Shown here piece by piece: positions 33,382 to 33,760 of a stretch of DNA of 64,000 nt (position 1 is the stretch's first letter; each line of letters begins with the position of its first letter). Under the pieces are notes generated by a model that worked only from the letters and a program-made list of their open reading frames with translations, made no database searches and was not told the DNA's origin. The translations under genes and the position numbers were made by a program. The stretch lies in assembly GCA_021513715.1 (NCBI GenBank), contig CP084167.1, positions 1,568,001-1,632,000 of the forward strand, written 5' to 3'. This DNA is from Candidatus Heimdallarchaeum endolithica. Lineage in GTDB: Archaea; Asgardarchaeota; Heimdallarchaeia; Heimdallarchaeales; Heimdallarchaeaceae.

Positions 33382-33760
33382 GAGTTGAAATTTTACGTAA
33401 TTTCTTCAGGACTCTCCCCAACCAATCAACAAACTTAGCGAAAGTTGTGAAGACTGGATTAAGAGAACATGAAAGACACAGTCTTAATTAAGTTCTCTAA
33501 GGGGTTCATCTCCTTATCCCGGGCACTCATAACTCCCAAAGGGAAGACCGGGTGTCGTAGGAGTGAAACCTACGTCTTTAAGCATATAGCTCAAGACACT
33601 AGATAAATTAGAATTAAATATATAAAGATAGCTGAAAAGTTGTGACACTCCCTAATATCGTGTATGTATTCTTTATTTTTGCAAATGTGTTTCAGGTTGT
33701 TATTGGTCTGATAACTCCACAAACTAAAAATTTAGTTTATTACGTAAAAAAGTATCTCAT
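33380..33760. mobile_element. Non-coding ~380-bp element with the same AT/TTACGTAA ends as the TnpB element
   Basis: TTACGTAA at 33393-33400 and 33740-33747, each 11 nt from AT. Right end TTACGTAAAAAAGTA is identical to 2541-2555. Confidence 0.85.
33404..33599 (-). ncRNA. Putative structured ncRNA inside the non-coding element
   Basis: GC-enriched run of hairpins; TTTATATA box on the minus strand at 33626-33619. Strand is inferred. Confidence 0.55.

Follow-up and report, generated by a model that had tools for sequence, protein, structure and literature searches.

A protein-less mini-transposon of Candidatus Heimdallarchaeum endolithica carries a probable TnpB omegaRNA

Introduction

What is a structured RNA doing as the only cargo of a DNA element that encodes no protein, and how does such an element persist and move? 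The question is raised by a locus in a 64,000-nt stretch of the Ca. Heimdallarchaeum endolithica chromosome (the window; contig CP084167.1, positions 1,568,001 to 1,632,000). The genome is a single 3.327-Mb contig (31% GC; closed, 93%-complete), and its congener Ca. Heimdallarchaeum aukensis PM71 has a genome of 3.08 Mb. An earlier note on the locus had described an orphan structured RNA on the minus strand and proposed a trans-acting guide, omegaRNA-like or bridge-RNA-like, or a ribozyme. The explanation favored here, with a probability of roughly 0.7, is that the element arose by deletion from a tnpB element and that its omegaRNA guides a resident TnpB in trans.

Results

A multicopy, protein-less element

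The element spans 383 bp, both CAT junction motifs included (Table 1), and contains no ORF of at least 60 aa. On the minus strand it is ordered as host-CAT, left end with TTTTTTACGTAA, spacer, TATA box, RNA, right end with TTACGTAAAA, ACTCAT and host DNA; what had been named its left end is the transposon right end. The H. endolithica genome holds 18 complete and 7 partial copies. The complete set consists of 16 near-identical full copies (86-100%) and 2 variants with another spacer, and the most alike copies reach 99.7% identity. H. aukensis has 8 complete and 3 partial copies, and further copies are present in vent metagenomes. A mini-element copy (925509-925884) has inserted into an IS605 element, at the 5' end of its tnpA, the sole Y1 tnpA gene of the genome. 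A 52-bp relic of the right end was also seen in the window at 5102-5153 (minus-strand match), ∼130 bp from a tRNA gene (4905-4976).

Upstream of the RNA lies a conserved TATA box; sigma-70 scans have no relevance for archaeal promoters. The usual archaeal spacing from the TATA box would place the transcription start near 33597-33599.

Table 1. Features of the mini-element locus and of a resident tnpB element (window coordinates)
Feature	Position	Strand	Remarks
Intact tnpB-only element (family A)	709-2562	+	same end motifs, homologous omegaRNA; candidate nuclease supplier, ORF 854-2311
5' part of broken host gene	32404-32763	+	intact 663-aa frame in H. aukensis
Inverted middle of host FG-GAP/TSP3 gene	32764-33381	-	bounded by AT cores; far junction without element end
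3' part of host gene	33762-34615	+	∼150 bp beside left end missing relative to H. aukensis
Protein-less mini-transposon	33379-33761	-	18 complete, 7 partial copies
Left end	33739-33761	-	target C and AT core (33759-33760), then subterminal repeat arm 33739-33749
Variable spacer	33635-33733	-	22-85% identity to 8 other copies
Conserved TATA box	33619-33626	-	TTTATATA at 33626-33619
Putative transcription start	near 33597-33599	-	placed by archaeal TATA spacing
Hairpin 1	33574-33597	-	relic of last tnpB codons; reads VLSYMLK (relatives VLSQWLQ, GLSHWLQ)
Hairpin 2	33557-33573	-	
Nexus-like stem	33518-33552	-	inner hairpin; pseudoknot loop AUGAGU (33530-33525)
3' domain	33406-33516	-	closing stem 33516-33511/33411-33406, kink-turn-like GAUGA/GAG loop, short stem, arms 33498-33462 and 33457-33422
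Right end and RNA 3' tail	33380-33405	-	subterminal repeat arm 33391-33401, terminal ACUCAU, AT core 33380-33381
Predicted guide	33360-33379	-	host DNA past right end, read through; estimated length, after TnpB omegaRNA architecture (PMC10691335)

The RNA fold is conserved while the spacer decays

All motifs quoted in the earlier note were found on the minus strand, the first hairpin starting at 33597. Folding energies are only moderately better than those of shuffled sequences on both strands (z = -2.6 for minus and -3.0 for plus; -2.1 for 33380-33599), so folding alone does not fix the strand. The minus strand is fixed by the TATA box, the G-U pairs and the orientation of the homologues relative to tnpB.

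Across 21 copies, hairpins 1-3 and the GAGAAC/GUUCUC arm are kept (94-100% of cells paired), whereas the proposed UAAGG/CCUUA helix fares worse (82% of cells, with one pair broken in 12/21). The interleaved AAGACUG/CAGUCUU pseudoknot is likewise poorly kept, with one pair broken in 7 of the 21 copies. Two nested helices compete with it: CCAGUC/GAYUGG is 94% paired, and AGAC/GUCU is 100% paired and in one divergent copy shows two compensatory changes. The preferred 3' fold comprises a closing stem (UCAGGA/UCCUGA), a RAUGA/GAG internal loop, a short stem, two arms and a 26-nt tail, the last six bases of which pair with the AUGAGU loop. In the modeled fold, the real pseudoknot is thus AUGAGU (33530-33525) with ACUCAU (33385-33380), the latter just beyond the span first described. 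The earlier note had also pointed to a partial match of the segment UUAUGAGU to the element junction and to the restored target. The junction match is meaningful as this intramolecular pairing with the RNA's own 3' end and not as a guide; the TTATGA match to the restored target is unique to the window copy and due to chance.

Copies of one genus show no significant covariation, as they are too alike. Over nine subfamilies the closing stem does covary, with 51/54 cells paired against 36 when shuffled and changes on both sides (representatives and register were hand-picked). The RAUGA/GAG loop sits between covarying stems and has one extra G relative to the standard kink-turn register. In divergent copies the RNA is 71-94% identical and the spacer 22-85%, down to 22-48% in the four most divergent. 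This retention of the RNA while the spacer decays argues for selection on the RNA.

No Rfam family matches the RNA at gathering or E-value thresholds; the family defined here is absent from Rfam. A self-cleaving or self-splicing ribozyme (IStron-like) would account for a dense fold with a pseudoknot, but this reading is scarcely credible: no Rfam ribozyme or intron matches even at E 10, an internal promoter is present, and the mini-element lacks the terminal G required of a group I intron.

Homologues lie at the 3' ends of tnpB genes

A covariance model built from the mini-element RNA (R1) was run on 83 genomes of the host's class and matched 14, all in the same family except for one weak match. 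In eight related genomes (G006, G012, G014, G020, G022, G024, G026 and G029), the match is located at the 3' end of a tnpB gene. These genes encode proteins of ∼490-520 aa that are 37-45% identical to the TnpB of the window. The homologous RNA overlaps or follows the tnpB 3' end and stops at the transposon right end. G002, G016, G017 and G026 have stand-alone matches preceded by a TATA box, and the smallest of these elements measure only ∼350 bp. The left end and promoter of the G002 mini-elements are identical in type to those of G006-type tnpB elements, which identifies the G002 stand-alone copies as internal deletions. Viral contigs gave no match for the RNA pattern or for close TnpBs.

Hairpin 1 is former tnpB C-terminal coding sequence. 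The possibility of a decayed coding-gene fragment, raised at the outset, therefore holds for the first ∼25 nt, which derive from the tnpB C-terminus, and not for the RNA as a whole. The pseudoknot between loop and 3' end is predicted in 29/31 tnpB-linked RNAs taken from relatives and shows a compensatory swap in resident family A (AUGAUU/AAUCAU), the RNAs of which also have the helix order and 25-26-nt tail of the mini-element RNA. Loop-to-end pairing of this kind is known as the nexus pseudoknot, which omegaRNAs are described as having in general (10.1101/2023.11.20.567912). Homology, position at element ends and pseudoknot make it very probable that the structured RNA is a TnpB omegaRNA, as one of the options in the earlier note had it. 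With the terminal ACUCAU of the element taken up in pairing with the AUGAGU loop, the host DNA beyond it would be the guide. For the predicted guides, the H. endolithica genome gave no convincing further target.

The same data bear on the bridge-RNA option, in which a bridge or seek RNA of an IS110/IS1111-type element would guide recombination. Subterminal inverted repeats, a short core, inversions and a predicted palindromic circle junction (CTCATGAG) are features such an element could have. It is nevertheless very improbable: no IS110 transposase (DEDD recombinase) was found in the closed, 93%-complete genome, the homologues sit on tnpB, and the RNA has no target-specific loop, the loop being invariant over 25 sites that have only C-AT in common.

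Resident TnpBs as candidate partners

The end motifs of the mini-element also bound a ∼1.87-kb tnpB-only family (family A) and a 1.79-kb subfamily (A2). Family B elements (∼1.5 kb) bear the same end motifs, with a right end of TTG-AT. Ten full-length TnpBs of the clade are resident (8 of family A and 2 of A2), all retaining the acidic D/E/D residues. The partner protein scores 83 bits against NCBIfam guided_TnpB, below the cut-off of 100, and its structure matches are to Cas12f/TnpB folds in general. D242, G347, E402 and D436 are invariant in the partner TnpBs, so that the RuvC-II glutamate is replaced by glycine and an alternative glutamate lies downstream. By these residues, the proteins look like catalytically intact nucleases of the rearranged RuvC-II type.

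Related tnpB genes were also seen in other settings. In another genus (L194, L200, L206, L207, L210 and L237), a clade tnpB follows a membrane-anchored HerA/VirB4-like ATPase gene, a mobile paralogue of a single-copy host gene; these loci showed no integrase in the vicinity. In Thorarchaeota and other archaea (L213-L244), a hairpin (GAGTTC, ∼20 variable bases, GAGTGAACTC) is conserved upstream of related tnpB genes, and its motif resembles the GTTCACTCA reported for aCas1-TnpB loci; many of these loci bear a divergent ∼1250-aa gene with a nuclease-like motif.

Insertion sites follow a V-CAT rule

A T precedes CAT at only 1/24 mini-element sites (p = 2e-4, overstated like all p-values for this bias because sites are related by descent), against a background of 37%. 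The corresponding figures are 1/18 for family A and 0/11 for the G002/G006 type. In family B (right end TG-AT), all four independent sites are TCAT (4/4). TCAT is avoided by elements that end in TCAT and not by the TGAT-ended family, a contrast consistent with a nuclease motif from which the element's own end is exempt. The bias could instead come from the mobilizing enzyme or from faster loss at TCAT sites. That mini-element sites obey the V-CAT rule of TnpB suggests use of a resident TnpB in trans, and on this sequence evidence the resident TnpBs probably do use the mini-element RNA.

Two other relations between the RNA and the resident nucleases were weighed. In the first, the mini-element carries an orphaned omegaRNA: its own TnpB was recently lost, the resident TnpBs do not use the RNA, and the DNA ends alone spread the element. 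R1 scores omegaRNAs of other genera at 40-60 bits and those of resident family A at 19-27 bits. The mini-element RNA is thus closer to the former, which points to the absence of its parent tnpB from both the H. endolithica genome and H. aukensis. Four partial copies, cut at an internal CATG and without the 5' half, persist all the same. Against this, fold and promoter are retained in both Heimdallarchaeum species while the spacer decays, the V-CAT bias is like that of family A, and the near-identical copies show recent spread of the whole RNA. An orphaned RNA is accordingly unlikely. In the second, the RNA is mainly a decoy or regulator: it binds resident TnpB and either titrates it away or steers it to sites that are bound but not usefully cut. 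The ∼18 promoter-driven copies do outnumber the 10 full-length tnpB genes, but the site bias accords with the element's sites being protected, and the nucleases look catalytically intact, which leaves such a role quite improbable.

Movement at a CAT/AT core and rearrangement of host DNA

A clean empty site has CAT once and the filled site has it twice, the next base not being duplicated. A strict 4-bp duplication is ruled out, since the empty site reads CATT and the left junction CATG. The junctions are those expected of recombination at a short core, CAT/AT instead of GG, that leaves a precise empty site.

Similar exchanges have altered host DNA. In H. aukensis the FG-GAP/TSP3 gene is intact (663 aa) and contains three AT-centered sites. 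The segment from site 1 to site 2 is inverted in the window, and ∼150 bp between sites 2 and 3 are deleted. In a mini-element copy from a metagenome, the stretch from the internal ATGAGT to the terminal ACTCAT is inverted. In another copy the internal ATGAGT is the point of fusion with the left end of a family B element. A serine recombinase is suggested by exchange that is reciprocal, takes place at a symmetric AT and does not depend on orientation. Two further differences were recorded: the broken FG-GAP gene has a stop at window 32692-32694 where H. aukensis has a tryptophan codon, and, of a duplicated host gene (2711629-2712552 and 2732229-2733304), the copy with the mini-element lacks ∼500 bp found in its paralogue, an adjacent deletion.

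Two short genes (L020, 316731-317582, and L021, 405351-406154; resolvase and recombinase domains, ∼240 aa) account for all serine recombinases found in the genome. In a sample of 201 Asgard genomes, with 21 of the family Heimdallarchaeaceae and 179 other Asgard genomes counted, they are highly conserved chromosomal genes in 20/21 family genomes and occur in 0/179 others; the first is syntenic across the family. Extra copies have no tnpB alongside. Mobilization of the whole CAT-ended TnpB/omegaRNA family of Heimdallarchaeaceae, without its own transposase, by these host enzymes is a possible but doubtful proposal drawn from the recombinase-like junctions and from shared distribution within a single clade. 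If true, RNA-guided homing would here depend on a recombinase of the host.

Other mobilizers were sought. An IS607 tnpA was found neither in the H. endolithica genome nor in H. aukensis, and IS607 left ends in relatives differ. No Y1 TnpA with matching hairpin ends was found; the genome's only Y1 TnpA gene is the one that bears an inserted mini-element. All Cas1 genes of the genome are in CRISPR-Cas operons, none being free, and several element-bearing genomes, which are incomplete MAGs, gave no Cas1 match. No transposase recurs as a neighbor at ∼70 clade loci. Multicopy DDE elements were rejected, as their ends differ. A ∼900-aa gene that precedes tnpB in some relatives was also rejected: its motifs mark it as a HerA/VirB4-like ATPase paralogue, and no recombinase was seen in its vicinity.

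Discussion

Proposed mechanism

The mini-element would be a deletion derivative of a tnpB transposon that kept the two ends, the promoter and the omegaRNA. Transcription would yield a scaffold of ∼220 nt and continue past the right end, so that adjoining host DNA supplies the guide; TnpB from a resident tnpB-only element would load this RNA. TnpB would then cut the empty site left on excision, where a motif of about 5'-V-CAT lies beside the guide match, and the chromosome copy still bearing the element would serve as repair template and restore it. Movement itself would occur by recombination at the CAT/AT core, with an enzyme encoded elsewhere.

The locus offers a natural, testable case of guide RNAs spreading without their nuclease, while the role of stand-alone omegaRNAs is still listed as unknown (PMC10691335). 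For an Asgard TnpB clade whose active site is rearranged, it also provides a predicted V-CAT target motif and the limits of the scaffold.

Comparison with known systems

Hitch-hiking elements with only an omegaRNA are already known in principle; the mini-element is set apart by its unusual ends and by the absence of a matching transposase among those found. By the tests run, it is not a member of IS200/IS605, IS607 or IS110. It points to a transposition route outside both IS605 and IS607, one that produces inversions and deletions in host DNA.

With IS607, which combines a serine recombinase TnpA with TnpB (10.1101/2023.11.20.567912), it shares a short core repeated at both junctions, an upstream target preference, nonmatching bases at the left junction and the nexus pseudoknot. 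The IS607 core is GG, whereas the core here is AT/CAT and the ends are inverted repeats in this genus. The aCas1-associated Asgard elements (PMC10691335) also have TnpBs flanked by repeats, and Thorarchaeota relatives bear a GTTCACTC-like motif; those elements have aCas1 beside tnpB, whereas none lies beside tnpB here. The partner TnpBs resemble rearranged RuvC-II TnpBs (TnpB2/RIIr) and Fanzors (PMC10530073, PMC10691335) in having glycine at the canonical glutamate position and an alternative glutamate (G347 and E402, with D242 and D436). The spacing is 55 residues here against about 45 reported, and the likeness is one of sequence only, with no Fanzor link claimed.

The closest parallel is with PATE-like IS200/IS605 derivatives and stand-alone omegaRNAs (10.1101/2023.03.14.532601; PMC10691335). 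PATE-type minimal elements bearing omegaRNAs are known in Geobacillus (10.1101/2023.03.14.532601), and stand-alone omegaRNAs have been reported (PMC10691335). Like them, the mini-element is mobile and protein-less, keeps both ends, shares these ends with tnpB elements in the same genome, and has an omegaRNA that would need TnpB and a transposase in trans. PATE-like elements have Y1-type hairpin ends, whereas the mini-element has subterminal inverted repeats and CAT at both junctions.
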